64,000 nt of DNA, taken from contig CAYGXJ010000078.1 in the NCBI GenBank assembly GCA_964353865.1, positions 1,853 to 65,852 of the forward strand. Direction: 5' to 3'. Below are positions 2,293 through 59,727 of the stretch, piece by piece (the stretch's first letter is position 1; each line of letters begins with the position of its first letter). The position numbers were made by a program, and so were the translations under genes. Below the pieces are notes generated by a model, which was not told the origin of the DNA, searched no databases, and was given only the letters and a program-made list of their open reading frames with translations. The DNA comes from an uncultured Anaerolineales bacterium. Lineage in GTDB: Bacteria > Chloroflexota > Anaerolineae > Anaerolineales > RBG-16-64-43.

Positions 2293-4383
2293 ATGCGCTC
2301 CATTTTCTACCCCAGCAGCATTGTCGTCATTGGCGTCTCCGAGAAACCCGACAACCTGGCTCGCAACATCGTGGGCAACCTGCGCGCCTTCGGCTATGCC
2401 GGGGCGATCTACGCCGTGGGCCGCGAGCCCGGTCAAGTGCACGGCGTTCCCATCGTGTCTTCGCTCGCGGCGGTGCCCGACCACATCGAGCTGGCGGTGA
2501 TCCTTACCCCGGCTCAGCTTGTGCCCGGCATGATGGAAACCTGTGCGCGCAAAGGAACCCGCCGCGTGGTGATCGAATCCGGCGGATTCAGCGAATTCTC
2601 GGCCGCAGGACGCGAACTGGAGCAGCAGCTGGTGGAGATCGCTGCGCAATACGACATGCGTTTCGTCGGCCCCAACTGCATCAGCGTGGTCAACCTCGAA
2701 TCGGGGGTATGCCTGCCCTTCGCGCAACTGGAGTCGGCCGATTTGCGACTGGGGCCGGCGTCGGTCATCTCCCAGAGCGGCGGGGTTTCGGTGACCTACC
2801 TCACGCGCCTTTCGGCGGGCGGCGTGGGCGTCAACAAAGGCGTGAGTATCGGCAACAAGACCAACCTGGACGAGGGCGACTACCTGGAGTTCTTGCTCGC
2901 CGATGAAGGCACGCGCATGGTCTTCATGTATCTCGAATCGATCAGCGACGGGCGGCGTCTGGTGGAACTCGCGCGCTCGAGCCCGAAGCCGGTGGTGGTG
3001 CAGAAGGCCAACCGTGGCCCGGCGGCGCGCGCGGTGGCGCTCTCGCACACGGCGGCGTTGGCCGATGACGACCGGATAGTGGATGCGGCGCTGCGCCAGG
3101 CGGGCATCCTGCGTGCCGAAAGCTTCCGCGAGGCGGTGGCGATCGGTCAGGCGCTGGCGCTGCCGCCCGTCGCCGGGCGCGACCTGGTCATCATCAGCCG
3201 TTCCGGCGGCCACGCGGTGATTGCGGCGGATTTGGCCGAAAGACTCGGGTTCCATTTGATGGCGCTGCCTCAGGATTTCGTCGACACAGTGCGCGCGATG
3301 TTCCGCGCAGACGTCATCGCACTGACCAACCCGCTCGACCTGGGTGTGATTTTCGATTTCAACTTGTATGCCGATATTGTGGCGCGCTGCCTGGAAGTGC
3401 TCGCCCCGAACGCGGTGCTGTTGATCAACACCTACGGCGAAACCGAAGCGGACAGTGCGCATCGTTTGGCGGGGCGCGTGAAGGAGATCATGCACAGCAC
3501 CGGGCGGCCGGTGGCGATCTGCGCCTACTCGCGCGCCGATGATCGCGAACGAATCCAGAACGAATTCGGGATACCGGTGTACAACGACCTGGAGGAGGCG
3601 CTGATCGGGTTGGCGGCCTCGCGCACACGGCAGGCCTGGCTAGCCCGCCACGCCGCCCAGCCTCGTGTGGCGTTGCCCAGCGTGCCCGCCTCCGCCGCAG
3701 TTGCCTCGCGCCAGGGGCTGGTGCTCCCGCCCGATGCGCTCGCGTTGTGCCATAGTTATGGGATCGTGCCAGCCGCCTTCGAGGTGACGGGTACGTCCGG
3801 CGAGGCGGCGCGGGCGGCGGCGCGCCTCGGGTTCCCGGTGGCGCTCAAGGCAATCTCGTCTGCGCTGATCCACAAAACCGATCGCGGCGGCGTGAGCCTC
3901 AACTTGGGCAGTGAGGCAGAAACTGCCGCCGCGGCGAAGGTGATGGGCGACCGCCTGCGGGGGAGCGTCGCACAGGATGAAACGCTTGAGTTCATGGTGC
4001 AACGCATGGCGGCCCCCGGGATCGAGCTGATCCTGGGCGGCCTGCACGATCACCTGTTTGGGCCGGTAGTCATGCTGGGCATCGGGGGTGTGTACGCGGA
4101 GATCTTCAAAGATGTCGCTTTCCGGTTGGCGCCACTGACGCGGCTCGAGGCCGAGGACATGCTGGAGGAACTACGCGGGGCAACTCTCTTGCGGGGTGTG
4201 CGCGGAGGCGCGGCGGCGGACCGCGAAGCGCTCCTGCGCGCCATGCTCGATTTCTCGCGCCTGGTGGCGGAGCACCCTGAGCTGCGCGAGGTCGAAATCA
4301 ATCCACTGATCATCTCTCCCGACGGGGCATGGGCCGTGGATGCACGGGCGGTCGCCGTCGCGAAAGAGCCGCAGGCCGGTTAG
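2293..4383 (+). CDS. ADP-forming acetyl/acyl-CoA synthetase (NDP-forming, fused alpha-beta)
   Basis: N-terminal CoA-binding fold (SIVVIGVSEKPDNLARNI), a succinyl-CoA-ligase-like middle and a C-terminal ATP-grasp. GGGAGGA RBS lies before ATG 2293. Confidence 0.85.
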   Translation: MRSIFYPSSIVVIGVSEKPDNLARNIVGNLRAFGYAGAIYAVGREPGQVHGVPIVSSLAAVPDHIELAVILTPAQLVPGMMETCARKGTRRVVIESGGFSEFSAAGRELEQQLVEIAAQYDMRFVGPNCISVVNLESGVCLPFAQLESADLRLGPASVISQSGGVSVTYLTRLSAGGVGVNKGVSIGNKTNLDEGDYLEFLLADEGTRMVFMYLESISDGRRLVELARSSPKPVVVQKANRGPAARAVALSHTAALADDDRIVDAALRQAGILRAESFREAVAIGQALALPPVAGRDLVIISRSGGHAVIAADLAERLGFHLMALPQDFVDTVRAMFRADVIALTNPLDLGVIFDFNLYADIVARCLEVLAPNAVLLINTYGETEADSAHRLAGRVKEIMHSTGRPVAICAYSRADDRERIQNEFGIPVYNDLEEALIGLAASRTRQAWLARHAAQPRVALPSVPASAAVASRQGLVLPPDALALCHSYGIVPAAFEVTGTSGEAARAAARLGFPVALKAISSALIHKTDRGGVSLNLGSEAETAAAAKVMGDRLRGSVAQDETLEFMVQRMAAPGIELILGGLHDHLFGPVVMLGIGGVYAEIFKDVAFRLAPLTRLEAEDMLEELRGATLLRGVRGGAAADREALLRAMLDFSRLVAEHPELREVEINPLIISPDGAWAVDARAVAVAKEPQAG

Positions 4384-6434: not shown

Positions 6435-7829
6435 TCAGCCGGCGTCAGGCGAGGCGCGCCGATCGCGCCGGGCGGCGCGGCGCCGCGCCAACTCATCGTT
6501 CAGCGCGCGATGCACTTCGCGCGTGATGGGGAAGGCGGCCGCCGCGGCGATGGCCGCCACCAGCAGCGCCGCCGGGACCCAGGTGGTGAGCGCGCGGATG
6601 CCGAGCAGCGCCGTCGGGGCCTGGACCGCGGCATTGGGCTGGTAGCCGGTGAGTTCGAGTACCCACCCGACCGAGGCCAGCGCCAGCGAGGTGCCGAGTT
6701 TCTGAATGAATCCGGACAGCCCCCCGAAAACCCCCTCCTGCCGCTCGCCGCTTTCGTACTCCACCGACTCGAGCGCATCCGCACCCATCGCGGTTGGCAA
6801 AACGTGCGCCGCGGATATGCCCAGGCCAGCCAGCACGGCGACGATAAAGACGGGCACGACCGCCGCCGCCGGCACCCACCACAGCGCCACGTGCAGCACC
6901 GCCCACACGGCGGTGGCGATGACGAAGGCCCACTTCTTCTCGTAACGCCCGGCCAGCCAATTGACCACCGGCAGGAAGACTATCGCGCTGGCAAGGATCG
7001 TCGCCAGGAAGATGGGCGTGTCGGCTTCGCTCACCTTGGCCCAGTAGATGAGGAAGTAGGCGAACACGGCCTCGACCATCGCGATGGCCAGCCATGCCAG
7101 CCCGTTGAGGAGCAGTGACAACCAGAAGGCGCGGTTGCGTAGCAGCACGCGCACCGAACGGGCGATGTCGCTCGTGCGCGCCGATTGAAAGTCCGCGCGC
7201 TCGCGCACGAGCGCCACCAAAACGAAGTAGGGCACCATGCTGACCAGGCCGATGCCGACGCCCGCCCACTGGAAAGCAGCCTGCACCGAGCCGGCGGCCT
7301 CGAACACGAACGGCAAGGCCACCGCCGCGAGGAGCCCAGTGACGATCGACACACCGGCGCGATAGGTGACAATCGATGTTCGCTCGTCGGTGTCGAGCGA
7401 GAGCTCGGGTGTGAGAGCATAGTACGGGCCGGAGACGAATGTGTACGCCAGGTCGAAGAGCAGGTAGATCACCAGGTAGTAGGCGGCGCGCCCAGTGGAC
7501 GTGGCCAGAGGCGGGACGAACCACAGCAACGCGTAGAACACGGCCATGGGCACCGCGCCGGCCAGCATGTACGGGCGGCGCCGCCCCAGCCGGCTGCGCG
7601 TGCGATCGGAAAGCGCGCCGACCAGTGGATCGTTGACCGCATCCCAGATGCGCGCGATGAGAAGTATCGTCCCGGCGACGCCTGGGCGAACCCCGGCGAC
7701 ATCGGTGAGGAAGAAGAGAAAATAGAAGGGCAGGACCGTGCCCGCCGCCACCGAGGGCGCAAACTCGCCCAGGGCGAACACCAGCTTGTGGTACCACCTC
7801 AGTTTGCGATCGCTCGCGGAAAGCTGCAT
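6435..7829 (-). CDS. glycoside-pentoside-hexuronide (GPH):cation symporter family MFS transporter
   Basis: Polytopic protein. GPH signature region ARIWDAVNDPLVGALSDRTRSRLGRRRPYM. AAGGAG RBS before ATG 7829. Confidence 0.85.
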   Translation of the reverse strand: MQLSASDRKLRWYHKLVFALGEFAPSVAAGTVLPFYFLFFLTDVAGVRPGVAGTILLIARIWDAVNDPLVGALSDRTRSRLGRRRPYMLAGAVPMAVFYALLWFVPPLATSTGRAAYYLVIYLLFDLAYTFVSGPYYALTPELSLDTDERTSIVTYRAGVSIVTGLLAAVALPFVFEAAGSVQAAFQWAGVGIGLVSMVPYFVLVALVRERADFQSARTSDIARSVRVLLRNRAFWLSLLLNGLAWLAIAMVEAVFAYFLIYWAKVSEADTPIFLATILASAIVFLPVVNWLAGRYEKKWAFVIATAVWAVLHVALWWVPAAAVVPVFIVAVLAGLGISAAHVLPTAMGADALESVEYESGERQEGVFGGLSGFIQKLGTSLALASVGWVLELTGYQPNAAVQAPTALLGIRALTTWVPAALLVAAIAAAAAFPITREVHRALNDELARRRAARRDRRASPDAG

Positions 7830-8193
7830 CAGGCGGCTCCTTGGGAAGGGATGGTCCCCACGCAAGGCTTAACACGCGCGGAGCACTGGAAGAGACGAGT
7901 TTGGCCTGAGCCTAGTCCTCGAGGCTATTGGGCCCCGGGGAAGTAGGAGGGTCGGGCCATGGCGGCGAGTGAGCATGATCTGGCGATTGGTGGAGCACGT
8001 GCCAAGAGGCACGAGCGCTGACAAGCATGCGCGGGCCACCAGAATGGCGCCCGACCGACAGTCCCGACAGCCCTAGGTGGCGCCAGGCATGCAAACCATT
8101 GTCCAGACTTGCATGGACCTGCAACGCGTGCGCGTGATTGGGGCAATCGAAAGACTCCTCCCATGGATTCATCCAGGAAGGGGAGGAATTTCG

Positions 8194-8225
8194 TATAATA
8201 CAGATGGACATTGACGGCAAATGTC
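8194..8225 (+). promoter_or_regulatory. putative -10 (TATAAT 8194-8199) followed by a 7-bp inverted repeat GGACATT-N7-AATGTCC (8205-8225) upstream of the etf fusion gene
   Basis: Read directly from the AT-richer intergenic DNA. No convincing -35 element. Confidence 0.3.
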
Positions 8226-8251
8226 CCTCGAGAAGACACTGAGGACACACA

Positions 8252-10096
8252 GTGCGCATTGTCGTCTGCGTCAAACAGGTGCCCACGGCCGACCGCCTGC
8301 AGTTCGACAGCCGAGATCTGCGCCTTGTGCGCGCGGGCGTGCCGAACGAAATTAACCCATTCGATCGTCGCGCGCTGGCGCAGGCCATTGCGTTGCGCGA
8401 GCAGCACGGCGGCGAAGTCATCGTGCTCACGATGGGCCCTGAACAGGCGCGCGAGGCGCTTTTCGAAGCCCTGGCTTCCGGCGCCGATCGCGCGGTTCAC
8501 TTGCAGGGAAGAGAGTTCGCCGGATCGGACACTCTGGCCACCGCTCGCGCGTTGGCTGAGGCCTGCCGCCACATCGGGTTCGACCTGATCTTGTGCGGCA
8601 AGTACACCACCGACGGGGAGACGGCCCAGGTGCCGGGGATGATCGCAGAGATACTGGACCTGCCCCAGGTTTCGGGAGTGACGGGCCTTGAGCTCAACGC
8701 CAAGCTCGATCGGGTGACCGTGACAAGCGAAGTGGATGACGGCCTGGAGGTGGTCGAGGCCAGGCTGCCGGCGGTGCTCACCGCCAGCGAGCGGTTGATC
8801 AAACCCATCAAGGTGTCGCCCGAGATGCTGGCCGCCGCGCGCAGCCGGCCGGTGGAGACGTGGGGAGCGCGCCAGCTCGAACTCGACCCGGTGCTGCTGG
8901 GGGATTCGGGCTCACCGACATGGGTCAGCGCGGTGCGCGAAGTCGTCAGCTGCCGCAAGCGAGTGATCCGCTCGGCGCACGAGGGCGCGCAGGGGGTGGT
9001 GGATGCGACGGTGCGCGATCTCCTGGCCGAGGGGCTGTTTGGCCGATGGCGAGCCACGGCCAGTGAGGCGCCGCCGATGGCGCATGCTGCCCGCTCAGCC
9101 GAGCGCGCGGTGTGGGTTGTCGCCGAGGTGCACCATGGCACACTGCGTCCGGTCACATTTGAGATGCTGGCCGAGGCGCGGCGTGTCGCAACCCGCCTGG
9201 GTGGGCCGGTGGCCTGCGTGCTCATCGGGCACGAGGTAGCCCCACTGGCTTCGCTTGCCGCGCGTCACGGTGCCGAGGTTGTCTACGTCGCGGATGCCGA
9301 GCCGCTGGGTGAGTTCTCGCTCGAGCAACATACGCACGTCCTGGCCGCCGCCATTCGCGCGCGCCGACCGCACCTGGTGTTGTTAGCTTCGACCGCAAGC
9401 GGCCGCGACCTCGCCCCGCGCGTTGCGGCGCGGCTGGAGATCGGCCTGACCGGCGATTGCCTGGGTCTGGAGGTCGACGATCAATCGCGGATTGTGCAGC
9501 TTAACCCGGCCTTTGCCGGCAGCCTGATCGCGCCTGTCCTTACTCGAACATTGCCGGTCATGGCTACGCTTCGTCCGGGCGCCGTGGAACCCTGGCCGCC
9601 GGATGGCTCGCACATGGTCGAGATCATCCACCTGGAGGTCGGCCATCTGCCGGCCAAGCGTACGCGTGTGCGCGATCACCAGCCGAGCGAGTACACGGTC
9701 CTCGACCTGGAACGCAGCCAGGTCATTGTCGGGGTGGGGATGGGCATGGGTGGCCCGCAGAATTTCCCGCCGTTGGATGAATTGGCGCGCGTGCTGGGCG
9801 CCGGTCTGGGCGCCACCCGCAAGGTGGTGGACGAAGGCTGGCTGCCTCGCCAGACCCAGATCGGGTTGACCGGTCATGCCTATGGGCCCAAGCTTTACGT
9901 TGCAGTAGGCATCAGCGGCAAGCCATACCATCTGTTCGGGTTGCGGCGCGCCGGGTTGATCCTCGCGGTGAACTCCGACCCGCAGGCGCCGATCTTCGCG
10001 GATTGCGACTACGGGATCGTTGGTGATTGGAGCGAGGTGGTCCCTCTTCTCACAGCGCGCCTGGTGCGTGCCCGGCGTGAAGCGGGCGTGACATGA
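8252..10096 (+). CDS. fused electron-transfer flavoprotein, EtfB-like N-half and EtfA-like C-half in one 614-aa polypeptide
   Basis: N-half: MRIVVCVKQVP..., NPFD, CGKYTTDGETAQVPGMIAE. C-half: VGVGMG..., ATRKVVDEGW, YVAVGISGKPYH, AVNSDPQAPIF. No stop or frameshift between the halves. GTG start. Confidence 0.85.
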   Translation: MRIVVCVKQVPTADRLQFDSRDLRLVRAGVPNEINPFDRRALAQAIALREQHGGEVIVLTMGPEQAREALFEALASGADRAVHLQGREFAGSDTLATARALAEACRHIGFDLILCGKYTTDGETAQVPGMIAEILDLPQVSGVTGLELNAKLDRVTVTSEVDDGLEVVEARLPAVLTASERLIKPIKVSPEMLAAARSRPVETWGARQLELDPVLLGDSGSPTWVSAVREVVSCRKRVIRSAHEGAQGVVDATVRDLLAEGLFGRWRATASEAPPMAHAARSAERAVWVVAEVHHGTLRPVTFEMLAEARRVATRLGGPVACVLIGHEVAPLASLAARHGAEVVYVADAEPLGEFSLEQHTHVLAAAIRARRPHLVLLASTASGRDLAPRVAARLEIGLTGDCLGLEVDDQSRIVQLNPAFAGSLIAPVLTRTLPVMATLRPGAVEPWPPDGSHMVEIIHLEVGHLPAKRTRVRDHQPSEYTVLDLERSQVIVGVGMGMGGPQNFPPLDELARVLGAGLGATRKVVDEGWLPRQTQIGLTGHAYGPKLYVAVGISGKPYHLFGLRRAGLILAVNSDPQAPIFADCDYGIVGDWSEVVPLLTARLVRARREAGVT

Positions 10097-10146
10097 TCGG
10101 CCCGGCCGCGGCCAGTGCCGACAGGAGCCTGCACCTCATAGGAGAG

Positions 10147-10203
10147 AGCACAGCATGCCTTATGCTTGCCCGCGTGGGAGTGGCATGCGCGAGCTTGGCC
10201 GCG
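10147..10203 (+). repeat. Family-B interspersed element (diverged copy)
   Basis: ...GCATGCCTTATGCTTGCCCGCGTGGGAGTGGCATGCGC... aligns with 26171-26235 and 59759-59825. Confidence 0.6.
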
Positions 10204-10346
10204 TTGGGAAGAGAGTAAGAGGGTGAACGCGAATGGACGCGCAGCCGGCCGAGAGAGGGCGGCCGGGCTCGTGAGGCTCCAAGATCTTATCGGCGCCATG
10301 GGTTATTCCGCTGCCCAGGTCAGACCGCGATGACATTGGCGAGAAT

Positions 10347-10391
10347 CTGTCATTGCGAGCAGGGCGTAAGCCCGGCGTAGTAATCCTGGAG
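10347..10391 (+). repeat. Family-C-related hairpin element (GTCATTGCGAG...GTAATCC variant)
   Basis: TGTCATTGCGAGCAGGGCGTAAGCCCGGCGTAGTAATCC has the same layout as the GTCATTCCGAGG...GAGGAATC units. Confidence 0.45.
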
Positions 10392-10496
10392 TGTGCGGGC
10401 CGCGGAACTTGGCGGCCCAGCGACACTCCCATTGGCGCCCCACGATCGCCTCGTCGCCATGCGCCTCTGCACAGCCCATGGCTCATCGCTATTCCG

Positions 10497-10524
10497 GTCG
10501 GGGCGCGCCATGGCGTGCCCCGAC
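10497..10524. repeat. Family-A palindromic element (perfect 28-nt hairpin, allowing one G-U pair)
   Basis: GTCGGGGCGCGCCATGGCGTGCCCCGAC is self-complementary around CCATGG. Related to 1-26 and 26332-26357. Confidence 0.75.
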
Positions 10525-10648
10525 ATTCATCACCTGGCGAGGTCCCGCGGAACACTCACCTCTCGCGTTGACAGGGAGGGCGTCTGTTCGACCACGGGAT
10601 TGAGGGTATGATGGGTTTTGTTGTCAGCAATGACAATGGAGGAGCGGC

Positions 10649-11398
10649 ATGTCCCTCGAGCGCGATCCCCACGGAAATGAGACACGGTTCCTCCATCAGA
10701 TCGGGGGCCTCTCGGGTGCGCGTGTGCTTGAGGTGGGCTGTGGGGAAGGACGGCTGACCTGGCGCTACGCGAACGCCACCCAGTCCACCGTGGCCATCGA
10801 TCCCCTTCTTGAGCGCCTGAGCGCGGCGCGCAACGGGTGCATTGCGGAATGGCGTGAGCGGCTGCACTTCGTGCAGGCCGACGCCGAGCATTTGCCGTTG
10901 CGCCACGCAGAATTCGACCGGGCGATTCTGGCATGGTCGCTGTGATGAATCCGCCACGAGGGCATGGTGCATGCCCTGGAGCGGATCTGGACTGCCCTCG
11001 CGCCGCATGGCGTGCTGGTCGACGTGCGTCCCGTCGCGGCCCGCTGGCCGCTCGAGATCCTCTGCCCGGGTCGCGCGGTGCGCGCAGGTCGGGTGGATGA
11101 CCGGCCGGGTGTAGCCGACGATCGCGCGGCGGATGCGGCCATGCACGCGGTCGAGCGCCGTGGGTTGTTCCGCCGCATCGACCAGGTGACCTTCCCCTTT
11201 GCCTATCTCTGGGATTCCGTAGACGAGATGAGCGACTACATTGCAGGCAACTGGGAGGGATGCGTTATCCTGCCGGGAAGACTGCTGGCCCGCGCTCGAA
11301 ACCTGGAACGCGAGGCTCGCGGCGAGCGGCGTGTGCGCATTACGCTGCGCATGATCATGCGCACATTCGCTAGGCAGGATGAACCGCGGGGTGCCTGA
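10649..11398 (+). pseudogene. class I SAM-dependent methyltransferase interrupted by tandem in-frame TGA TGA (10943-10948)
   Basis: ORFs 10649-10945 and 10964-11398 share one frame. Motif I VLEVGCGEGRLT and motif II FDRAILAWSL come before the stops. The expected continuation (ALERIWTALAPHGVLV) follows them. Confidence 0.65.
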
Positions 11399-35251: not shown

Positions 35252-35605
35252 TCAGCCGATCGGGTAGCGCATGTGCTGGCCGCCAATGAGATGCAGGTGC
35301 AGATGGCGGACGATTTGTCCGGAGTCGGCGCCGGTGTTGATGATCACGCGGTAACCGCTTTCGTGCACGCCCTCCCGGCGGGCGACATCCGCGGCAGCCA
35401 GCAGTAACCGCGCGGCGAGGTCGGCGCCCGCCTCGGCCAGCCCGTTCAGGCCCGCCACATGACGGTTGGGGACGATCAGCACGTGGACCGGGGCCGCGGG
35501 GTGGATGTCGCGGAAGGTGGTCACCCATTCGTCGTGATAGATGATCTGTGCCGGTGCGGCGCGAGTCACGATTTTGCAGAAGAGGCACTCGGGATGGGAG
35601 TCCAT
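35252..35605 (-). CDS. HIT-family (histidine triad) protein
   Basis: CLFCKI...HVLIVPNRH...HLHLHLIGG. ATG 35605 preferred over TTG 35620. Confidence 0.9.
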   Translation of the reverse strand: MDSHPECLFCKIVTRAAPAQIIYHDEWVTTFRDIHPAAPVHVLIVPNRHVAGLNGLAEAGADLAARLLLAAADVARREGVHESGYRVIINTGADSGQIVRHLHLHLIGGQHMRYPIG

Positions 35606-35649
35606 GGTCAGTCCTGACAACCGGTTGGCTCGCTCGAGTCTGTGGCGGG

Positions 35650-36190
35650 GAGCCCGAGAAAGACGCCGTTCTCAAGCGCGGCCAGGCGGGTGGGGAGAAT
35701 GCGGTTCGCCAGGCCGGCTGGCGCGCGGCGCGAGCCGCAGCCGGCCGCGTGACGCAGAAGGGGCAGCGGTTGTCGCAGCCGTCTTGCACTTTAAGGAAGG
35801 CGTGCGTGCGCCGGCGCGGAGCGGGGGGCGGCGCGCGGCCATAGGGGCATCCCTCTGCGCCCCGGCGAGGCTCTCGCGCAGGGCCGCTTTGCCTGCATTT
35901 GCGACCACCCGGCTGACGCCCGGCAACGCGCGCGCTTCGCCCGCGGCGAGTGTGGCCCAACAGCCGGTGAGCACGAGGCGTGCCTGAGGCGCCAGGGCAT
36001 GCAGGCGGCGGGCGGCGCTGCGCGAATCGCGCTCGGCCTCCCTCGTCACGGCGCAGGTGTTGAGCACGATCACTTCGGCCTGGGCCGGGCGCGCGACGAT
36101 CTCGTCACCCGTGGCATGAAATCGCAGCGCGAGGGAGTCAATCTCGCTTTGATTGAGCCGGCAGCCGACCGTATCGAAGAAGACGCGCAT
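35650..36190 (-). pseudogene. decayed remnant of a MiaB/MtaB-type radical-SAM methylthiotransferase
   Basis: One frame holds the N-terminal UPF0004-type domain (MRVFFDTVGCRLNQSE...VIVLNTCAVT). The radical-SAM motif FLKVQDGCDNRCPFC appears only in a second frame. A third frame gives ILPTRLAALENGV.... The rest of the enzyme is absent because the HIT gene follows. Confidence 0.65.
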
Positions 36191-50282: not shown

Positions 50283-51071
50283 ATGACGTCTTCCAAGGCC
50301 GAACACGCCTCGCTCAATCCTCTCCAGCTCAAACCTGTCAACCGTCTGGTGGCCGGCGTGCCTCTCTACATTCAGATAGCAGAAGGACTCCTGACCTGGG
50401 TCGATTCGGGTCGCCTCGCTCCTGGCGATCGCCTGCCGCCCGAGCGCGACCTGAGCCAGATGCTTGGCGTGAACCGAATGACTTTGCGCCGTGCGCTGGA
50501 GATGCTCGAGGCGCAGGGGCTGCTGGCGCGCCGCCAAGGTGCCGGCACCTACATCGCCGACCGCAAGATCGAGCGCCAGGCCGGGCAACTAGTCTCGTTC
50601 ACCAAGCGCATGCGCGAGCAAGGCTTCACGCCTGGGGCGAAGGTGATCTCGTTTGAGGAGCGGCCGTGCGGCGCAGCTCTGGCGGCGGCGCTGCGGCTGC
50701 CGGCATTTGCGCCCGTCTACGACATCCGCCGGCTGCGATTCCTCAACGGCCAGCCGGTGCTGCTCGAGCACTATACGCTCCCGATCATGCGCTTTGCGCG
50801 CCTGGCGCGATACGATCTTGAGCAAAACTCGTTGTACGAGGTGCTGCATGAGCACTACGGGGTGGATGTGCATCGGGCGCGCCTCAGCCTGGAGGCGGTG
50901 CTGGCCACCGCGTACGAGTCTGAGCAATTGCTCGTGCCGCTGAGCGCACCGCTGATGCTTGAACGCCGGCTTTCATATGATGCTCTGGGAGCGCCGGTGG
51001 ACCACGGCGAGGACTACTACCGGGGGGACCGTTTTCAATTCGTCACCGAGACGGCGGCGCTGGCGCTGTAG
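50283..51071 (+). CDS. GntR/HutC-family transcriptional regulator (wHTH plus UTRA domain)
   Basis: PLYIQIAEGL...GDRLPPERDLSQMLGVNRMTLRRALEMLEAQGLLARRQGAGTYI followed by a UTRA-like C-terminus. ATG 50283. Confidence 0.88.
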   Translation: MTSSKAEHASLNPLQLKPVNRLVAGVPLYIQIAEGLLTWVDSGRLAPGDRLPPERDLSQMLGVNRMTLRRALEMLEAQGLLARRQGAGTYIADRKIERQAGQLVSFTKRMREQGFTPGAKVISFEERPCGAALAAALRLPAFAPVYDIRRLRFLNGQPVLLEHYTLPIMRFARLARYDLEQNSLYEVLHEHYGVDVHRARLSLEAVLATAYESEQLLVPLSAPLMLERRLSYDALGAPVDHGEDYYRGDRFQFVTETAALAL

Positions 51072-51122: not shown

Positions 51123-52643
51123 ATGGGCCAATACTTCGAACTGCTGAGCCGCGATCAGGTGCTGCGGGTTCACGAGGCATCACTGGAGATTCTCGACGAG
51201 GTGGGGCTGCTCATCCGCAATGCGCAAGCGCGTGAGATCCTCGCTGCACATGGCTGCCGCCCGCTGCCCGGGAGCGAGATCATGCACTTCCCGCGAGCCG
51301 TGGTTGAAGAGTTCCGCGTCTCGATCCCGCCCACCTTCACTTTTGGCGGCCGCGAGCCGCGCTTCGACCGGACGATCCCGGACGACAGCCCGGTGATGGT
51401 CACCGGCAGTTCGGCGCCGAACATCATCGACCCGCTGACCGGGCAGGAGCGACGCGCGCGCTCGGAAGACTTGGCACGCATCGCCCATCTCGTCAACGGA
51501 CTCCCGGGGTACGACGTCTTCTCCATCTCAACTCTGGCCGAAGACGCCCCTGCGGGCATGTTCAGCCTCACCCGCTTCTATGCCGCACTTAAGAACTGCG
51601 CCAAGCCGGTGCGCGGCAGCGGCCCGCCTGAGGACACCGAGAAGATTCTGCAACTGGCGTATACCATCGCCGGAAGCGAAGCCGCCTACCGGGCACATCC
51701 TTTCGTGACCCATCACTACTGCCCGGTGGTTTCGCCGCTGACGATGGATTTCGATTCGACCCAGATGCTCATCTATTACACCGAGCAAGGGCTGCCCTGC
51801 TACCCGACCATTGTCCCCAACGCCGGGCTCACATCGCCGCTGACTCTCCTGGGGACTTTAGCCCAGGGCAATGCGGAATTCCTGGCCGCGGCGGTTCTCG
51901 AGCAAATGGTGCGGCCCGGCAAAGCTACGATCTACGCCATGTTACCTACCGTGGCCGATATGCGCAGCGGGGCCTACGCGCCGGGCGCGATCGAGACCGG
52001 CGTGCTCTTCGTGGGGCACGCGCAGATGGCACGTTTCTACAATGTGCCCAACGGCGGCTACATTGGGCTGACCAATTCCAAACTCAACGACGCCCAATCG
52101 GGCTACGAGACCGGTATGTCGCTGGCGCTTGGCCTGGCGGCCGGCGTGGACATGTTCAACACCGGCGGGTTGCTGGACGCGTTGATGGCATTCGATTTTG
52201 CCAAGGCGGCCATTGACGACGAAATCTTCATGATGGCCAAGCGGGCCAAGCGCGGACTGGAGTTCAGCGAGGACAACCTGGCCCTCGATCTGATTCGCGA
52301 GGTGGGACCGGCGGGCATGTTTATGGACAACGCGCACACGTTGGAGCGCATGAAGACGGCCGCCTTCCTGCCCGAGATTTCGGATCGCGACGCTCGCGCC
52401 CAGTGGATCGAGCGCGGCGCCCTGGACTCACAGGAGCGCGCGATGCGCAAGGTGCAAGACATTCTGACCTGCGACAACCCGGTTGTGTTTTCCGCGGAGG
52501 TCGATGCACGCGTGCGCGCCAAATTCGCCGGTCTGGTGGCTGGGGACTCGCGCCCGCCCGAAGGCTGGACACGCGCCGCCCGGACCGCCCGGCGTGAGCG
52601 CACTGAACGGCGGCGACGCGAAGCGGCTGGCCAGAGCAGCTGA
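51123..52643 (+). CDS. MttB-superfamily (non-pyrrolysine) methyltransferase, probable quaternary-amine:corrinoid methyltransferase
   Basis: 506 aa with no in-frame TAG. MttB-like along the full length (LSRDQVLRVHEASLEILDEVG..., IDDEIFMMAKR..., TLERMK). Substrate unknown. Confidence 0.8.
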   Translation: MGQYFELLSRDQVLRVHEASLEILDEVGLLIRNAQAREILAAHGCRPLPGSEIMHFPRAVVEEFRVSIPPTFTFGGREPRFDRTIPDDSPVMVTGSSAPNIIDPLTGQERRARSEDLARIAHLVNGLPGYDVFSISTLAEDAPAGMFSLTRFYAALKNCAKPVRGSGPPEDTEKILQLAYTIAGSEAAYRAHPFVTHHYCPVVSPLTMDFDSTQMLIYYTEQGLPCYPTIVPNAGLTSPLTLLGTLAQGNAEFLAAAVLEQMVRPGKATIYAMLPTVADMRSGAYAPGAIETGVLFVGHAQMARFYNVPNGGYIGLTNSKLNDAQSGYETGMSLALGLAAGVDMFNTGGLLDALMAFDFAKAAIDDEIFMMAKRAKRGLEFSEDNLALDLIREVGPAGMFMDNAHTLERMKTAAFLPEISDRDARAQWIERGALDSQERAMRKVQDILTCDNPVVFSAEVDARVRAKFAGLVAGDSRPPEGWTRAARTARRERTERRRREAAGQSS

Positions 52644-52690: not shown

Positions 52691-54766
52691 ATGCATACCC
52701 ATCGATATGGGACGGATGACACTGTGACCGACAAGCCAACCTCAATCCCCGAACACCAACTCGTGCTCGTGCCATCCGGGCGGCGCGGACTCATCGCAGA
52801 GGGGACCGACCTGCTCACCGCCTGCCGCTCACTGGGGGTGGATCTGGAATCGATTTGCGGCGGCAAGCAGACCTGCGGCAAATGCCAGGTCGTCGTGGAG
52901 GAAGGGCGCTACGAGAAACACGGCCTCACCTCCGTCGCACGTCACCTCTCGCCGCCCGAGGCGCAAGAGATCGCCTGCGCGGCCAAATTCGATATCCACG
53001 GCCGACGGCTGGCCTGCGCCGCCCGCGTGCAGGGCGAATTGCTGGTCAGCGTGCCGGAGGAAAGCCAGGCGCGCAAACAGGTCATCGCCAAAGAGGCCAC
53101 TGAGCGCACGATAACCATCCAGCCCGCGGTGCGGCTCATCTATATAGAAGTGACCCCGGCCAACCTGGGTGACCATCGCGGGGATTGGCAACGGGTGCAG
53201 CAGGCGCTGCGTGAACAATGGCAGATCGCGTCGCCGGTCCTCGACCCGGCCGTGCTGCCCAGCCTGCAACCGGCGCTGCGCCGTGGCGGGAGCACGCTGA
53301 CCCTCACCCTGTGGGACGAGCGCGAGGTGCTGCGCATCGAGCCCGGCTATGTGGAGCGGCTGGTCGGCCTGGCGGTGGATGTGGGTTCAACCACTATCGC
53401 GGCTCACCTGTGCGACTTGCGCACCGGCGCCGTGCTCGCCAGCGAATCGATGATGAATCCCCAGGTGCGCTTCGGCGAAGACCTGATGAGCCGAGTGTCG
53501 TACGGCATGAGCGAGCCGCAAGGCGTGGCACGCATGCACCGTGCGGTCATCCGCGCCATCAACGAATTGGCCGAGAAGGCCGCTGCCCGCGGCGGGTTTA
53601 CCTCGGGCGAGATCGTCGACAGCGTGCTGGTGGGCAACAGCATCATGCATCACCTGCTGCTCGGGCTTGACCCGGTTGAGCTGGGCGGTGCGCCGTTTGC
53701 GCTGGCCACCTCCGGACCGCTCGACATGAAGGCGCGCGACCTGGGGCTGGCGTTCCACCGCGGCGCGCGGGTGCACGTGCTGCCGTGTATCGCCGGGCAT
53801 GTGGGCGCCGACCACGTGGCGGCGCTGCTGGCCGAGGCGCCGCACAAGCAAGATGAAGCGATGCTGCTCATCGATGTGGGGACCAACGCCGAGATCTCGC
53901 TCGGCAACCGCGAGCGAATGATGTGCGCCTCAAGCCCGACCGGGCCGGCCTTCGAGGGCGCGCAAATCACCCACGGCCAGCGCGCCGCTCCGGGCGCCAT
54001 CGAGCGGGTGCGCATCGACCGCGTCACGCTCGAGCCGCACTTGAAGGTCATCGGCCATGAGACCTGGGTGGAGCCGCAGGCTGCGGACGAAGTGCCTGCC
54101 CAGGCACGTGCCACCGGCATCTGCGGCAGCGGCATCATCGAGGCCGTAGCGGAGATGTTCCTGGCCGGCATCATCACCTCCGACGGCCGCTTCGACGAAC
54201 AGGCCGCCGAGCGCTCACCGCGCGTGCAATTCGAAGGACGCACCGGGCGCTACGTGCTCGCGGACGCCGCGCAAACCGCTACCGGCGCGCCGATCGTGGT
54301 CACTCAGAGCGATGTGCGCGCGATTCAATTAGCCAAGGCGGCGTTGTATGCCGGCGTGCGGCTGCTCATGGAACATCAGGGCGTCGCGCAGGTCGACCGC
54401 ATTGCACTGGCCGGCGCCTTCGGCAGTTACATCAGCCCGCGCCACGCGATGATCCTGGGCATGATCCCAGACTGCGAGCTGGAGCGCGTGCAGGCCGTAG
54501 GTAATTCGGCGGGCGACGGAGCGCGCATTGCCCTGCTCGACCGCGAGCAGCGAGTGGAGGCGGAGCGGCTGGCGAGATGGGTGGAGCACGTGCAGACAGC
54601 CACCGAGCCCACCTTTCAAGATCTGTTCGTCGCGGCGCTTGCCTTGCCGCACGCGAGCGACGCCTTCCCTCATTTGCAGGCCGAGCTTCCTGCCCCGCGA
54701 ACCGCCGCACGGGCGCGGCCGCGGCAAAGCCACACCAACCCATCCCACCTGGAGAATGCGGAATGA
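52691..54766 (+). CDS. corrinoid reductive-activation ATPase (RACo / RamA-like; N-terminal [2Fe-2S] ferredoxin plus ASKHA ATPase)
   Basis: CGGKQTCGKCQV...LACAARV plant-type 2Fe-2S motif. ASKHA region GLAVDVGSTTIAAHL, LLIDVGTNAEI. Start ATG 52691 (52664/52724 are alternatives). Confidence 0.82.
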   Translation: MHTHRYGTDDTVTDKPTSIPEHQLVLVPSGRRGLIAEGTDLLTACRSLGVDLESICGGKQTCGKCQVVVEEGRYEKHGLTSVARHLSPPEAQEIACAAKFDIHGRRLACAARVQGELLVSVPEESQARKQVIAKEATERTITIQPAVRLIYIEVTPANLGDHRGDWQRVQQALREQWQIASPVLDPAVLPSLQPALRRGGSTLTLTLWDEREVLRIEPGYVERLVGLAVDVGSTTIAAHLCDLRTGAVLASESMMNPQVRFGEDLMSRVSYGMSEPQGVARMHRAVIRAINELAEKAAARGGFTSGEIVDSVLVGNSIMHHLLLGLDPVELGGAPFALATSGPLDMKARDLGLAFHRGARVHVLPCIAGHVGADHVAALLAEAPHKQDEAMLLIDVGTNAEISLGNRERMMCASSPTGPAFEGAQITHGQRAAPGAIERVRIDRVTLEPHLKVIGHETWVEPQAADEVPAQARATGICGSGIIEAVAEMFLAGIITSDGRFDEQAAERSPRVQFEGRTGRYVLADAAQTATGAPIVVTQSDVRAIQLAKAALYAGVRLLMEHQGVAQVDRIALAGAFGSYISPRHAMILGMIPDCELERVQAVGNSAGDGARIALLDREQRVEAERLARWVEHVQTATEPTFQDLFVAALALPHASDAFPHLQAELPAPRTAARARPRQSHTNPSHLENAE

Positions 54767-55446
54767 GCGAGGAATTGGATCTGACCAAGCTGCCGACCGA
54801 GGAGATCGTCCTGCAGATCAAGGACGACCTGTATGATGGACTGGCGGCTGAAGTTGCGGCCGCGGTCCGGGAACTGCTGCGTCGCGGCCTGACGCCCTAC
54901 GAGGTTCTAACCGGATCGCTCGTGGCCGGGATGGATGTCGTGGGTGCGGATTTCCGCGACGGGGTCCTCTTCGTGCCCGAGGTGCTCATGGCCGCCAAGT
55001 CCATGAAGGCCGGCATGGAAATCCTGCGCCCGCTGCTGGTGGAGACCGGCGCGCCGCAGATCGGCACGTTCGTCATCGGGACGGTGAAAGGCGACATTCA
55101 CGACATCGGCAAGAACCTGGTGGCGATGATGATGGAGGGGGCCGGGTTCAAGGTGGTGAACCTGGGCATCAACGTGGACGCGGAGAAGTTCATCGGCGCG
55201 GTGAAGGAGCACAAGCCCACTCTCTTCGGCATGAGCGCGCTGCTGACCACGACCATGCCGTACATGGGGGTGGTGATCAAGGCTCTCAAGGAAGCCGGGT
55301 TGCGCGACGACCTGATTGTCTTGGTCGGCGGCGCACCGCTTAACGCCACTTTTGCCGAAGAGATCGAGGCCGACGCCTACTGTCGCGATGCGGCCATCGC
55401 GGTCGAAACGGCCAAGAAACTGGTCGCGCTCAAGCGCGGGGGCTAG
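54763..55446 (+). CDS. corrinoid (B12-binding) protein, cap plus Rossmann domain
   Basis: DxHxxG base-off/His-on motif GDIHDIGKN, MSALLTTT, VGGAP. ATGA overlap with the activase stop. Confidence 0.9.
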   Translation: MSEELDLTKLPTEEIVLQIKDDLYDGLAAEVAAAVRELLRRGLTPYEVLTGSLVAGMDVVGADFRDGVLFVPEVLMAAKSMKAGMEILRPLLVETGAPQIGTFVIGTVKGDIHDIGKNLVAMMMEGAGFKVVNLGINVDAEKFIGAVKEHKPTLFGMSALLTTTMPYMGVVIKALKEAGLRDDLIVLVGGAPLNATFAEEIEADAYCRDAAIAVETAKKLVALKRGG

Positions 55447-55587: not shown

Positions 55588-56475
55588 ATGACAACCTGGA
55601 GTGAGTTGCTGGCGCAGCCAGGAGTGATCCTCGCCGATGGCGCGATGGGCACGATGCTGATGGCAAACGGACTGGCATTCGGCAATTCCCCTGAACTATG
55701 GAACGTCGATGAGCCGCAGCGCGTGGGAGAGGTTCACGCGGCTTACCTCCAAGCGGGCGCGCGCATCCTCCTGACCAACACATTCGGCGGGAACCGCTTC
55801 CGCTTGCAGCTCCACAACTTGCAGGAGCGTGCCGCCGAACTGAACCGCGCTGCGGCACGCCTGGCTCGCGAAGCCGCGGGGGGCACCGCGCTGGTGGCGG
55901 GCGACATCGGCCCCAGCGGGGGCATCCTGGCGCCCCTCGGCGAACTGGAGCCCGAGGCAGCCGTGGCCGGGTTCGCCGAGCAGGCGGCGGCGCTGGTCGA
56001 GGGCGGGGTCGACGTGATCTGGCTCGAGACGATGTCGAGCCTGGAAGAGATGCGCGCGGCTATCGACGGAGTGCGGCGGGCGTCGGCGGGTATCCCGATC
56101 ATCACCACGATGACGTTCGATACGCGCGGGCGGACGATGATGGGTGTGACGCCCGCGCGCGCGGCGCAGACTCTGAGCGGATGGGGGGCCGTGGCGGTGG
56201 GGGGCAACTGCGGCAACGGGCCGGACGAAATCCTCGAAGTGGTGGCCAAGATGCGGGCGACGGCGCCCGCCGCCACGCTCGTGGCCAAAGCCAACGCCGG
56301 CGTGCCGCACCTTGCGGCCGGGCGTCCGGTTTACGGCGCCGGCCCGGACGACATGGCGCGCTACGCCATCGCGGCCGTCGAGGCCGGGGCGCGCGTCATC
56401 GGCGCGTGCTGCGGAAGCACACCAGACCATTTGCGAGCGATGCGCGATGCGCTCGCAGCCAAAGGCCTGCTCTAG
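55588..56475 (+). CDS. stand-alone homocysteine S-methyltransferase-domain protein (MetH Hcy-module-like)
   Basis: ILADGAMGTML, LLTNTFGGN, Zn-ligand Cys in GGNCG and GACCGSTP. AGGAGG RBS. Confidence 0.85.
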   Translation: MTTWSELLAQPGVILADGAMGTMLMANGLAFGNSPELWNVDEPQRVGEVHAAYLQAGARILLTNTFGGNRFRLQLHNLQERAAELNRAAARLAREAAGGTALVAGDIGPSGGILAPLGELEPEAAVAGFAEQAAALVEGGVDVIWLETMSSLEEMRAAIDGVRRASAGIPIITTMTFDTRGRTMMGVTPARAAQTLSGWGAVAVGGNCGNGPDEILEVVAKMRATAPAATLVAKANAGVPHLAAGRPVYGAGPDDMARYAIAAVEAGARVIGACCGSTPDHLRAMRDALAAKGLL

Positions 56476-56480
56476 CGGGA

Positions 56481-57071
56481 GTGGTTGAGTTGCGAACTGC
56501 CTTGATCGCCTGTGGTGCATTGGCGCGCGAAGTGCTGGCTCTCAAAGCCAAACACAACTGGCAGGCGGAGGTGCTGGCCGTGCCGTCTTTGTTGCACAAC
56601 ACACCCGACCGCATCCCGCAGGCCGTGGCGCGGCGCATCCGCGAAGCGCGTGCCGCCTTCGACCGGGTCATCGTCGTTTACGGCGATTGCGGCACGGGCG
56701 GCCGGCTGGATGCGCTGCTCGCCGCCGAAGGCGTTGAACGTGTGGCGGGGCCTCATTGTTACGAGATGTACGCCAATGGTCAGTTCCAGGCGATGATGGA
56801 CCGCGCGCCGGGCACGTTTTTCCTCACCGACTATTTGGCGCGTTCATTCGATCATCTGGTCGTGGAGCGATTGGGTCTCGATCGCCACCCGGAACTGCGC
56901 GAGGACTTCTTCGCCAACTACACCAAGGTGGTCTATCTGGCGCAGGAGGACAAAGCGGAGCTGGTGGCCAAGGCGGAATGGGCTGCGCGCGCCCTTGGGC
57001 TGCCGCTGGAGGTGGTGCGTGTGGGCTACGGTGCACTCGAATCACGGCTGGTGGAGATGATGAAAGCATGA
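56481..57071 (+). CDS. DUF1638-family protein
   Basis: LIACGALAREV...SLLHNTPDRIP...VIVVYGDCGTGG...GPHCYEMY matches my recollection of the DUF1638 pattern. GTG 56481 or TTG 56490. Confidence 0.7.
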   Translation: MVELRTALIACGALAREVLALKAKHNWQAEVLAVPSLLHNTPDRIPQAVARRIREARAAFDRVIVVYGDCGTGGRLDALLAAEGVERVAGPHCYEMYANGQFQAMMDRAPGTFFLTDYLARSFDHLVVERLGLDRHPELREDFFANYTKVVYLAQEDKAELVAKAEWAARALGLPLEVVRVGYGALESRLVEMMKA

Positions 57072-57373
57072 GCGTTGACGTTCGTATCGTTTCGTGGCGC
57101 GATATCCCGGCGCAGGTGAAGATCGGCGCCGGACGTGCGCGCATATCGCGTCCACTCGCCGAGCGCTTTCAGCGCGCGATCGACGAGGCGGCGATGCGCG
57201 CCGGAAAAAGCGGCAGCGACGAATACCTCACCGAGTGGCGCACCTCCGACCCCGAGACCCGCGAAGGGGAACCCGAATCGGTGGCCGCGGAACTCGTGGC
57301 GGAGATCGAGGCCGCGTACCCCGAGGCGCGGCTGCAGGCCTTGGTGGCTCAGCGCGGGTTAGAGGCCGCATAG
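57068..57373 (+). CDS. small conserved protein with WRDIPAQV motif (I recall this as the Pfam 'Virulence factor' family that accompanies MetF/DUF1638 clusters)
   Basis: 101 aa. ATGA overlap with the DUF1638 gene stop. The family assignment is from memory only. Confidence 0.55.
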   Translation: MSVDVRIVSWRDIPAQVKIGAGRARISRPLAERFQRAIDEAAMRAGKSGSDEYLTEWRTSDPETREGEPESVAAELVAEIEAAYPEARLQALVAQRGLEAA

Positions 57374-57411: not shown

Positions 57412-57867
57412 ATGTCGTTCCTGCAAAACCATCCGGCGCTGCTCGAGACGGCCTACGACGCAACCACGCGCCTGCTGCATCCGTGGCGGCGCTGGCTGCG
57501 CCGCGGCGGGGCGACCGAGAAGCTTCTGGTCGTCGCCGAGCAGGTGGGCAAAGGCGCCATCTTCGACTGCCGCATGTGCGGCGAATGTGTGCTGCACAAC
57601 ACCGGCATGACCTGCCCGATGACCTGCCCTAAGAATATGCGCAACGGGCCGTGCGGCGGAGTGCGCCCCGACGGCCGCTGCGAAGTCCTTCCCGACCAGC
57701 CCTGCATTTGGACTGAGGCGTGGCAGCGCGCGGCGCGCATGCCCAAGTACGGCGGCGAAATCCACCTCATCCTGTCTCCGCTCGACCGCCAGCAGCAGGA
57801 CCGCTCGGCTTGGTTGAACGAACTTCTCGGCCTGCCGGATTCGGTCCCCCAGGGATGGGACGAATGA
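57412..57867 (+). CDS. metV: methylene-THF reductase C-terminal-domain protein (MetV-type Cys-rich subunit)
   Basis: CRMCGECVL...TGMTCPMTCPKNMRNGPCGG. Its stop overlaps the metF start (ATGA). Confidence 0.8.
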   Translation: MSFLQNHPALLETAYDATTRLLHPWRRWLRRGGATEKLLVVAEQVGKGAIFDCRMCGECVLHNTGMTCPMTCPKNMRNGPCGGVRPDGRCEVLPDQPCIWTEAWQRAARMPKYGGEIHLILSPLDRQQQDRSAWLNELLGLPDSVPQGWDE

Positions 57868-58823
57868 AGAGCGGCTCCCGGCTCGAGCGCGTGTTGCACT
57901 CCGGGCGATTTGCGGTGACGGCCGAGCTGAACCCGCCCGACAGCGCCGATGCGCAGGCAGTCTACGACCGCGCGTTGGTGCTGGCCTCGGTGTGCGACGC
58001 GATCAATGCCACCGATGCCTCGGGCGCCAATGTCCACATGTCGAGCGTCGGGGTGTGCGCATTGCTCACACGCGCCGGCTACGAGGCTGTGCTGCAGGTA
58101 AGCTGCCGCGACCGCAATCGCATCGCCATACAGGGCGATCTGCTGGGGGCGGCCGCCATGGGCGTGCGCAACGTGCTGTTCCTCACCGGCGACGGAGTCC
58201 AGGCTGGCGATCAGCCGCAGGCCAAGCCGGTGTTCGATCTGGATTCGATCGCTGCGCTGCGCATGGCACGCCTGATGCGCGACACGGGGCGCTTCCTTAG
58301 CGGGCGGACCCTCGAGGTGCCGCCGCGCATCTTCATGGGGGCGGCTGCCAACCCGTTTGTGCCACCGGTGAAGTTTCGCGCCCAGCACTTGGCCAAGAAA
58401 GTGGAAGCCGGGGCCGATTTCATCCAAACCCAGTACGTCTTTGACCTGGCGCGCATGCGCCAGTTCATGCGTGAAGTGTGCGATTTAGGGCTCGACCGCC
58501 GCGTCCACATTCTGGCTGGCGTGGGCCCGCTGCGCTCGGCCAAGACCGCGGAGTGGATGCGCAGCCACGTGCCGGGAGTGGTGGTGCCGGATGACGCGGT
58601 ACATCGCCTGCGCGGCGTGCCGACCGACCACCAACGCGAAGAGGGCAAACGCCTGTGCATCGAGATTATCCGTGAACTGCGCGAGATGCCTGGCATTCAT
58701 GGAGTGCATGTGATGGCCTATCGCCAGGAGGAGCTGGTGGCGGAAATCATCGAAGAAGCCGGCCTGCTCCCGCGACGGGCGGAGCCCGAAGCGACGGCGC
58801 GAGTTGAGGAGAAAGTGGCCTGA
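57864..58823 (+). CDS. metF: 5,10-methylenetetrahydrofolate reductase
   Basis: FAVTAELNPP, LQVSCRDRNR, FLTGD, KVEAGADFIQTQ. Confidence 0.88.
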   Translation: MKSGSRLERVLHSGRFAVTAELNPPDSADAQAVYDRALVLASVCDAINATDASGANVHMSSVGVCALLTRAGYEAVLQVSCRDRNRIAIQGDLLGAAAMGVRNVLFLTGDGVQAGDQPQAKPVFDLDSIAALRMARLMRDTGRFLSGRTLEVPPRIFMGAAANPFVPPVKFRAQHLAKKVEAGADFIQTQYVFDLARMRQFMREVCDLGLDRRVHILAGVGPLRSAKTAEWMRSHVPGVVVPDDAVHRLRGVPTDHQREEGKRLCIEIIRELREMPGIHGVHVMAYRQEELVAEIIEEAGLLPRRAEPEATARVEEKVA

Positions 58824-59727
58824 TGGAAACCATTCTTCGTTCGCCGGGGCGCGAAGTGCGCATTGGCCCGGCGCGGCCCTTCGTCATCATCGGTGAACGG
58901 ATCAACCCGACCAACCGCGCGCGGCTGGCGGCGGAAATGGCGGCCGGCGATTTCTCACGGGCGCGCGCGGAGGCGATTGCCCAGGTGCAAGCCGGGGCGC
59001 AGGTGCTGGATGTCAACGCGGGCATTCCGCTGGCCGACGAACCGGCCATCCTAGCCGAGGCTATCCGCGTCATCCAGGAGGCCGTCGATGTGCCGCTGCG
59101 CATCGATTCCTAGCTTGTCAAAGCGCTGGAAGCCGGTTTGGCCGCCTATCGCGGCAAACAGCTGGTCAATTCGGTGACCGGCGAGAGCGAGCGCCTGGAA
59201 GTGGTGCTGCCGCTGGTGAAGAAAAACGGCGCGGCGGTGATCGGCGTGGCCAACGACGAGGGCGGTATCTCGGAAGACATACACGTGCGTTTCGCGGTGG
59301 CACAGAAGATCGTCGAGCGCGCGGAAGCGTTCGGCATCCCGCGTGAAGACGTGCTCATCGACCCGTGGCCATGCCCATCGGCGCGGTTGCCGCCGCCGGC
59401 GTCTCGCTGTTTGCCTTGGCGCGCCGGCTGCGCGAGGAACTCGGGGTCAACACCGTGTGCGGGGCACCCAATATCTCGTTCGGCCTGCCGGATCGCGTAA
59501 TGCTGAACGGCGCCTTTCTCACCATGGCCATCGGCGCGGGCATGACCTGTGCCATCACTAATCCGCTGGAGGAGGACTTGCGCAAGTTGATCCTTGCGGC
59601 GGATGTGATGATGGCCCACGATGATAACTGCGCGTCGTGGCTCGCGGCGCAGCGACCGGCCGGCGACGGCGCGCGCGAGGAGCGTCTGGCAAGGCGCGAA
59701 CGGCGCCGGGCGCAGCAGGGCGTGTAG
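58823..59727 (+). pseudogene. pterin-binding methyl-THF:corrinoid methyltransferase (MetH pterin-module / MtgA/AcsE-like) disrupted by an in-frame TAG (59111-59113) and a 1-nt deletion near 59363
   Basis: GERINPT..., LDVNAG, PLRIDS-TAG-LVKALEAGL...QLVNSVTGE..., VLIDP then a frame change to (L)AMPIGAV...CGAPNISFGLPDR. The start overlaps the metF stop (TGATG). Confidence 0.65.

Follow-up and report, generated by a model that had tools for sequence, protein, structure and literature searches.

The closest described relatives of the gene cluster reported here come from Roseobacter-group bacteria. The split methionine synthase of Phaeobacter inhibens comprises PF02574, PF00809 and B12-binding proteins together with a RamA-like protein and a DUF1638 protein, the last of which has been linked to B12 reactivation in split MetH systems (PMC5764234). 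In Ruegeria pomeroyi, the pterin-binding protein MtgD is proposed to work in both directions, deletion of mtgD results in methionine auxotrophy and in loss of growth on glycine betaine, and a MetF paralogue adjoining mtgD is proposed to oxidise the methyl-tetrahydrofolate (methyl-THF) produced (PMC12478193). The MtgD proteins SPO1863 of R. pomeroyi and PGA1_c16040 of P. inhibens serve as references (Mausz et al. 2025, PMC12478193; Price et al. 2018, PMC5764234). In this study, we focused on the mtgD gene (58823..59727, + strand) that ends an operon of this type in a 64-kb contig segment of an uncultured Anaerolineales bacterium (CAYGXJ010000078.1; the whole 64,000-nucleotide stretch analysed is called the window). 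This gene carries a nonsense codon and a frameshift, and it is very probably a genuine, fixed pseudogene within an MtgBCDE-type split methionine synthase / quaternary-amine demethylase operon.

As judged by protein families and gene content, the locus resembles Roseobacter MtgBCDE. A stand-alone PF00809 protein is encoded with an MttB-family enzyme, a corrinoid protein and a PF02574 homocysteine module, and a RamA-like activator, a DUF1638 protein and a MetF paralogue are encoded alongside. Unlike the Roseobacter systems, all of the components lie in one operon, the genome is Anaerolineae-like and mtgD is disrupted. By analogy, the operon belongs to the MtgBCDE type of split methionine synthase / quaternary-amine (glycine-betaine) demethylase and is predicted to have had both activities. 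The functional MtgD that such a locus requires is lacking in the window lineage, while mtgD is intact in the sister locus L003. The best structure matches to an intact orthologue were MeTr/AcsE (PDB 2yci, 2e7f and 1f6y, with 2yci as the best solved structure at E 2.6e-42) and the D. hafniense pterin-binding protein 4o0q (E 2.6e-42 to 9e-39 overall), and the DS, NS, IDP and SN-S motifs of the orthologue align with those of MeTr. However, MeTr serves the Wood-Ljungdahl pathway with CFeSP as its partner, whereas the window operon contains no CODH/ACS genes. The pterin-binding domain of MetH (Thermotoga maritima 1q7m; E 5.4e-38 against the intact orthologue) has the same fold family and half-reaction, but in MetH it forms one domain within a single large protein chain, whereas in the window it is a separate, dead gene.

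The ATG of mtgD at 58823 overlaps the TGA of metF (cTGATGg). Translation of 58823-59500 gives ...VDVPLRIDS, a TAG, and then LVKALEAGLAAYRGKQLVNSVTGE...REDVLIDPWPCPSARL... to ...REDVLIDP, the last codon of which is CCG at 59363-65. Past this codon the original frame yields unrelated sequence (WPCPSARL...), and the homology continues one base over as (V)AMPIGAVAAAGVSLF...CGAPNISFGLPDR... to a TAG at 59725-27; the shifted frame, read from 59344, translates to ...VAMPIGAVAAAGVSLFALARRLREELGVNTVCGAPNISFGLPDR... and ends at that same codon. The first lesion, the in-frame TAG at codon 97 (59111..59113, +), replaces a Ser (TCG) of the IDSS motif that is at least 95% conserved. The window reads TCC TAG CTT GTC where sister loci read TCA TCG GTG/GTT GTC, so the Ser codon was converted to TAG by a C-to-A substitution and the adjacent codon holds a second change (GTT/GTG to CTT). 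The second lesion is a one-nucleotide deletion in Leu codon 182 (59365..59366, +): the first base of CTG or TTA is gone (CCG -TG GCC in the window against CCG CTG GCC or CCG TTA GCC in relatives), and the 3' homology lies in the -1/+2 frame. The deletion sits in a TT/CT dinucleotide, outside any homopolymer run. With these two lesions, no uninterrupted open reading frame (ORF) spans the whole barrel. In the alignment to L003, the one-nucleotide gap in mtgD is the sole indel; the other operon genes and addB align without gaps and without internal stops.

An earlier sequence-only reading of this DNA had placed the TAG in frame with ATG 58823, had proposed a missing base between CCG and TGGCC, and had described two independent lesions in the gene that closes an operon of overlapping, undamaged genes. 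Our translation bears out the first of these points, the shifted-frame homology and the Leu codon of the relatives confirm the second, and the L003 alignment and family matches agree with the third. The nucleotide differences are also unevenly distributed around the stop codon. Between 59087 and 59122 there are 8 differences in 36 nt (~22%) relative to the sister loci L085 and L086, against ~6% over the whole gene; two of them alter codon 93 (Ser to Arg) and another falls in codon 98. A mutational event that hit several nucleotides at once, or recombination over a short tract, could account for this cluster.

The broken gene can be identified with some precision. When the stop was masked and one base restored, the 301-residue product matched PF00809 (Pterin_bind) over positions 2-244 of 244 (E 4.6e-25), a full-profile match that upholds the earlier assignment to a pterin-binding (methyl-THF:corrinoid) module. 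Fragment 1 and fragment 2 each match PF00809, over consecutive stretches of the profile, and fragment 3 alone gave no match in the Pfam search. The intact orthologue P0001, 93% identical to the repaired product, passes the NCBIfam model NF005719 (343.7 bits against a cut-off of 259). Four motif residues are still encoded (the D of IDS, the N of NSV, the D of IDP and the N of SNISFG), but across three pieces in different reading frames, and in the window the near-invariant Ser that precedes one Asn is replaced by Pro (GAPN). In MeTr structures, the residues aligned with NSV, IDP and SNISFG are pterin contacts.

Neither lesion was found among the relatives. The search of a large protein collection returned thousands of homologues, and the figures given here refer to the best or listed matches. 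The best 22 are uninterrupted proteins of about 300 residues, 84-93% identical to the repaired product, and all 120 homologues listed are intact across both lesion sites. More than 120 intact homologues of 301 residues, up to 93% identical, have Ser-Val at the position of the TAG and Leu at that of the deletion. In an alignment of 16 homologues, a nearly invariant Ser (IDSSV[V/I]K) stands where the window has the TAG, and a nearly invariant Leu (IDPLAMPIGAV) where the frame shifts. At the nucleotide level, the sister loci L003, L004, L085 and L086 (about 93-94% identity) have TCG GTN and CCG CTG/TTA and are intact, and in all 80 reference-genome loci recovered both sites are crossed in a single matching segment. 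These findings answer the suggestion of the sequence-only reading that orthologous loci be compared. The sister comparison was made with metagenome contigs because the scan of reference-genome contigs gave no relative closer than 77% and did not recover the genome of the window itself. P0093, P0020 and P0004 were rejected as closest relatives since their C-termini are chimeric, and only their first ~630 nt were used. P0093, for example, joins MtgD residues 1-238 to ATP-synthase subunit c sequence. Among the closest "intact" homologues, chimeric metagenome contigs include L085 (from about 2040 on), L086 (3' end) and P0004, and the apparent C-terminal diversity is therefore inflated. Look-ups of the exact window products of AddB, MttB, the corrinoid protein and the 120-residue third mtgD fragment returned no record.

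The lesions recur in assemblies from other sequencing runs. Contig L093 (ERR3804374) carries both of them and differs from the window by 6 single-nucleotide polymorphisms (SNPs), L002 (ERR4334728) carries both with 4 SNPs, and L001 (ERR3804373), in which the TAG is the only site covered, carries it with 5 SNPs. All three are Logan contigs, produced by a different assembler from that of the window, and they align gaplessly to the window. Since each differs from it by 4-6 SNPs, they are distinct haplotypes and not one assembly copied, and the recurrence of the lesions on differing haplotypes from other runs indicates true lesions that have become fixed in a natural lineage. Records of the 96-residue product that stops at the TAG come from L001, from L002 and from a 93,005-bp NCBI contig that is probably the window's own source; a one-residue variant of it (R82L), a separate cluster member, led to L093. 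The lineage is present in at least 6 data sets (further contigs are 99.6-100% identical), with intact upstream genes in all of them. In JGI metagenome contigs, neither a degenerate pattern for the TAG at the mtgD site nor a lineage-specific 27-mer between both lesions gave a match, and a literature search on the run accessions found no paper. The flagged lesions are biology and not assembly noise.

The lesions are younger than the split from the 94%-identical L003 and older than the diversification of the sampled haplotypes. Within mtgD, the lesion-bearing haplotypes show five differences, of which four are non-synonymous (R82L, N135H, V142G and P216S) and one is synonymous; V142 is invariant in the 16-homologue alignment, and S216, which precedes the Asn of SN(I/V)SFG, is at least 95% conserved. 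The same comparisons in the intact operon genes gave 9 non-synonymous and 16 synonymous changes. These counts are below significance and only suggestive, in the direction that neutrality predicts. Among the same haplotypes (L001, L002 and L093), SNPs are concentrated in ~420 bp of metF (58268-58691), including two derived amino-acid changes (F157Y and M158I), and L001 and L002 have no SNP in the mtgD region that they cover. Long-term decay of mtgD was rejected, as the window gene deviates at few family-wide conserved columns (2, or 4 counting the lesions; median 1). This indicates that inactivation was recent relative to the L003 split (6% divergence), and as a rough estimate from the counts of non-synonymous and synonymous changes (N:S) it may have occurred in the last 15% or so of the window branch.

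For a branch test, the more distant locus L087 served to polarise the substitutions. N:S on the window branch was 10:16 in mtgD against 25:103 in the seven genes of the upstream part of the operon (p=0.043). Combined, metV, metF and mtgD had 20:36 on the window branch, compared with 4:37 on that of L003 (p=0.004). The two branches had equal synonymous counts (139 for the window and 141 for L003), and the upstream genes behaved alike on both (25:103 and 18:104). A stricter test with five sequences gave 13:24 against 2:33 for the folate-arm genes (p=0.003) and 6:13 against 0:16 for metF alone. The whole-gene dN/dS relative to L003 was 0.185 for mtgD and 0.07-0.18 for the other operon genes. The branch tests are suggestive of relaxed constraint on the whole methyl-THF arm (metV, metF and mtgD), beyond mtgD alone.

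The maximal mtgD product at this locus is a 96-residue N-terminal fragment that ends just past the Asp of the IDS motif and, by alignment to MeTr, would correspond to about the first third of the barrel. As it lacks the NSV, IDP and SNISFG motifs, which line up with pterin contacts in MeTr, the locus makes no functional MtgD. Intact MtgD carries methyl groups between tetrahydrofolate and MtgC, the corrinoid protein. In the window lineage, the MttB-family enzyme (MtgB) should still methylate MtgC, MtgE should still pass this methyl group to homocysteine, and RamA and DUF1638 would keep the cofactor active. Exchange of methyl groups between MtgC and tetrahydrofolate through the mtgD locus would be lost, and with it both folate-dependent methionine synthesis by the MtgBCDE system and the route by which MetF/MetV would oxidise folate-bound methyl groups derived from betaine. 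metF and metV would be left without a partner, apparently drifting. The sequence-only reading had likewise proposed a dead methyl-THF arm, MttB-to-homocysteine transfer as the sole route and stranded MetF/MetV. This proposal fits the published MtgBCDE model (PMC12478193) and gains some support from the excess of amino-acid change in metV and metF on the window lineage; the metabolic outcome itself stays at the level of a prediction.

Three other explanations were weighed. The first, that the lesions are sequencing or assembly artefacts hiding an intact gene, is very improbable. Assemblies of this clade are not free of indel artefacts, as is shown by L087, a related contig of long-read style in which both mttB and metF are split in two. 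However, the TAG is found in three Logan contigs and the deletion in two of these, from three other runs and a different assembler, on haplotypes separated from the window by several SNPs; moreover, the deletion lies outside a homopolymer and the TAG is a substitution accompanied by a second change in the adjacent codon. The assembly or sequencing error allowed for by the sequence-only reading is refuted by this recurrence. More improbable still is recoding, in which pyrrolysine insertion or a suppressor would carry translation through the TAG and a programmed -1 frameshift would then restore the frame, to yield a functional MtgD. Some members of the MttB family, to which this operon belongs, use pyrrolysine, and a -1 slip of tRNA-Pro on C-CCG, giving IDP-V-AMPIGAV, is formally possible. 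Yet the MttB gene of the operon has no in-frame TAG, no tRNA-Pyl is present in the window (only tRNA-Leu and tRNA-Asp are encoded), and TAG is the ordinary stop codon of 12 of the 36 Pfam-supported window genes, four of them in the mtgD operon. Homologues keep Ser at the TAG site, and none has a TAG or a shift. No X XXY YYZ heptamer exists at CUC AUC GAC CCG UGG, and the RNA fold is unremarkable relative to shuffled sequences (z 0.11 for 104 nt past the shift site and z -1.56 for 100 nt past the TAG). Changes since the lesions strike invariant residues, and readthrough would leave the frameshift uncured. An Rfam scan of the window found one of the two tRNAs and neither a riboswitch nor a recoding element. 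The earlier opinion that amber readthrough was much less likely thus agrees with the conserved Ser, the ordinary TAG stops and the lack of tRNA-Pyl in the window. A functional split barrel made of three pieces was also considered and rejected, since pieces 2 and 3 lack a convincing ribosome-binding site or start.

The third explanation accepts the pseudogene but not its metabolic consequence: another pterin-binding methyltransferase, MetH or MetE would supply the methyl-THF link, and only a redundant copy would have been lost. This is possible, though we consider it short of probable. The part of the genome covered is 64 kb, the other operon genes are intact and constrained, and metH and mtgBCD co-occur in 28 of 239 metH-bearing genomes in the survey of PMC12478193. 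On the other hand, the same survey gives about 70% of MtgBCD genomes as lacking MetH and most as lacking MetE, and the excess amino-acid change in metV and metF is expected if the whole arm is useless and not if a paralogue sustains it. Within the 64-kb window, neither a second PF00809 gene nor metH or metE was found. Of the genes that the sequence-only reading had proposed to look for, neither tRNA-Pyl nor a second pterin-binding gene is present in this window.

Several points weigh against the interpretation of mtgD as a fixed pseudogene with metabolic effect. The lesions were read from assembled contigs and not from raw reads. Of the two other assemblies that corroborate the deletion, one comes from a run (ERR4334728) that may be the window's own sample, as it also yielded L089, a contig with 100% identity to the window; the runs ERR3804373 and ERR3804374 are independent of that sample. 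Several selection tests were made, on small counts. For the metabolic consequence to hold, no second PF00809 gene, metH or metE may be encoded beyond the 64 kb covered, and the substrate of the MttB-family enzyme is assigned by homology only.

A fixed mtgD pseudogene nevertheless remains the reading that we prefer, and the case is an ordinary, recent pseudogene in a known operon type, neither a new kind of system nor recoding. In annotation of the source metagenome-assembled genome (MAG), mtgD should be treated as a pseudogene, and neither complete folate-linked betaine demethylation nor a B12-dependent methionine synthase should be credited to the locus. If no paralogue compensates, this lineage would be a natural mtgD knock-out in which the modular MtgBCDE system has been trimmed to a betaine-to-methionine route. 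As a tentative and rather doubtful extension, a dual-purpose MtgBCDE may, on losing MtgD, have become a dedicated corrinoid-dependent quaternary-amine (betaine):homocysteine methyltransferase, with metV and metF decaying in step. Under such a conversion, methionine synthesis would be limited to conditions that supply a betaine-type methyl donor, or methionine itself, and the lineage would mirror the laboratory mtgD mutant of R. pomeroyi.

The cluster comprises ten genes on the + strand, and the nine other than mtgD are intact. The first encodes a GntR/UTRA-family regulator (50283..51071; PF00392 and PF07702), the start of which was set by homology to L003. It is followed by the mtgB-like gene of the MttB superfamily (51123..52643; PF06253, E 1.6e-88), which encodes 506 residues without an internal stop or pyrrolysine codon. 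The best solved structures for this protein are the glycine betaine methyltransferases 9yce/2qne (E 7e-66), with trimethylamine methyltransferase more distant. Next come a RamA/RACo-type reductive activator of the corrinoid protein (52724..54766), with RACo domains and Fer2 and with NCBIfam AcsV/RamA-like matches that are both below curated cut-offs, and the corrinoid (B12-binding) protein gene mtgC (54763..55446; PF02607 and PF02310), for which MtgC_2 is the best NCBIfam match, below its curated cut-off. The homocysteine S-methyltransferase module mtgE (55588..56475; PF02574) passes NCBIfam NF005718. The DUF1638 gene (56520..57071; PF07796) precedes a small PF13769 ("Virulence_fact") gene (57068..57373), which occupies the same position in loci of other phyla. 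The remaining two genes are metV (57412..57867; PF12225), encoding a DUF5981 protein of the C-terminal type of methylene-THF reductase (MTHFR) subunit, and the methylene-THF reductase gene metF (57864..58823; PF02219). Neither the PF13769 protein nor MetV is mentioned in the available text of PMC12478193.

Two Anaerolineales/Anaerolineaceae MAGs (L005 and L006) share the gene order of the window, at 51-81% protein identity. A core cassette of the corrinoid protein, DUF1638, PF13769, metV, metF, mtgD and ramA recurs in many Proteobacteria and in other phyla, and its order is constant in Gammaproteobacteria, Steroidobacteraceae and other MAGs among the matches listed (L005-L084, e.g. L045-L082, about 6800-11000). 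On the 1.9-Mb contig L087, whose MtgD is 87% identical, gene calling breaks mttB and metF into two genes apiece (2308-3662 and 9041-10001), and the alignment of L087 to L003 requires small indels at both. These splits represent either long-read indel errors or further operon decay in another lineage.

Two observations concern the rest of the window. At 35590-36190 (- strand) lies a remnant of a MiaB/MtaB-type radical-SAM methylthiotransferase gene. Its UPF0004 domain (PF00919) is intact in an ORF at 35672..36190, and the radical-SAM motif LKVQDGCDNRCPFCVTR is offset from it by one frame. Because a HIT-family gene begins at about 35590, nothing more of the radical-SAM and TRAM domains is left. 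This remnant is a second pseudogene in the window and apparently an older one. At 8252-10096 (+ strand), a single ORF of 614 residues contains two PF01012 electron-transfer flavoprotein (ETF) domains and a PF00766 ETF-alpha FAD-binding domain, and its product looks like a fused EtfB-EtfA electron-transfer flavoprotein.

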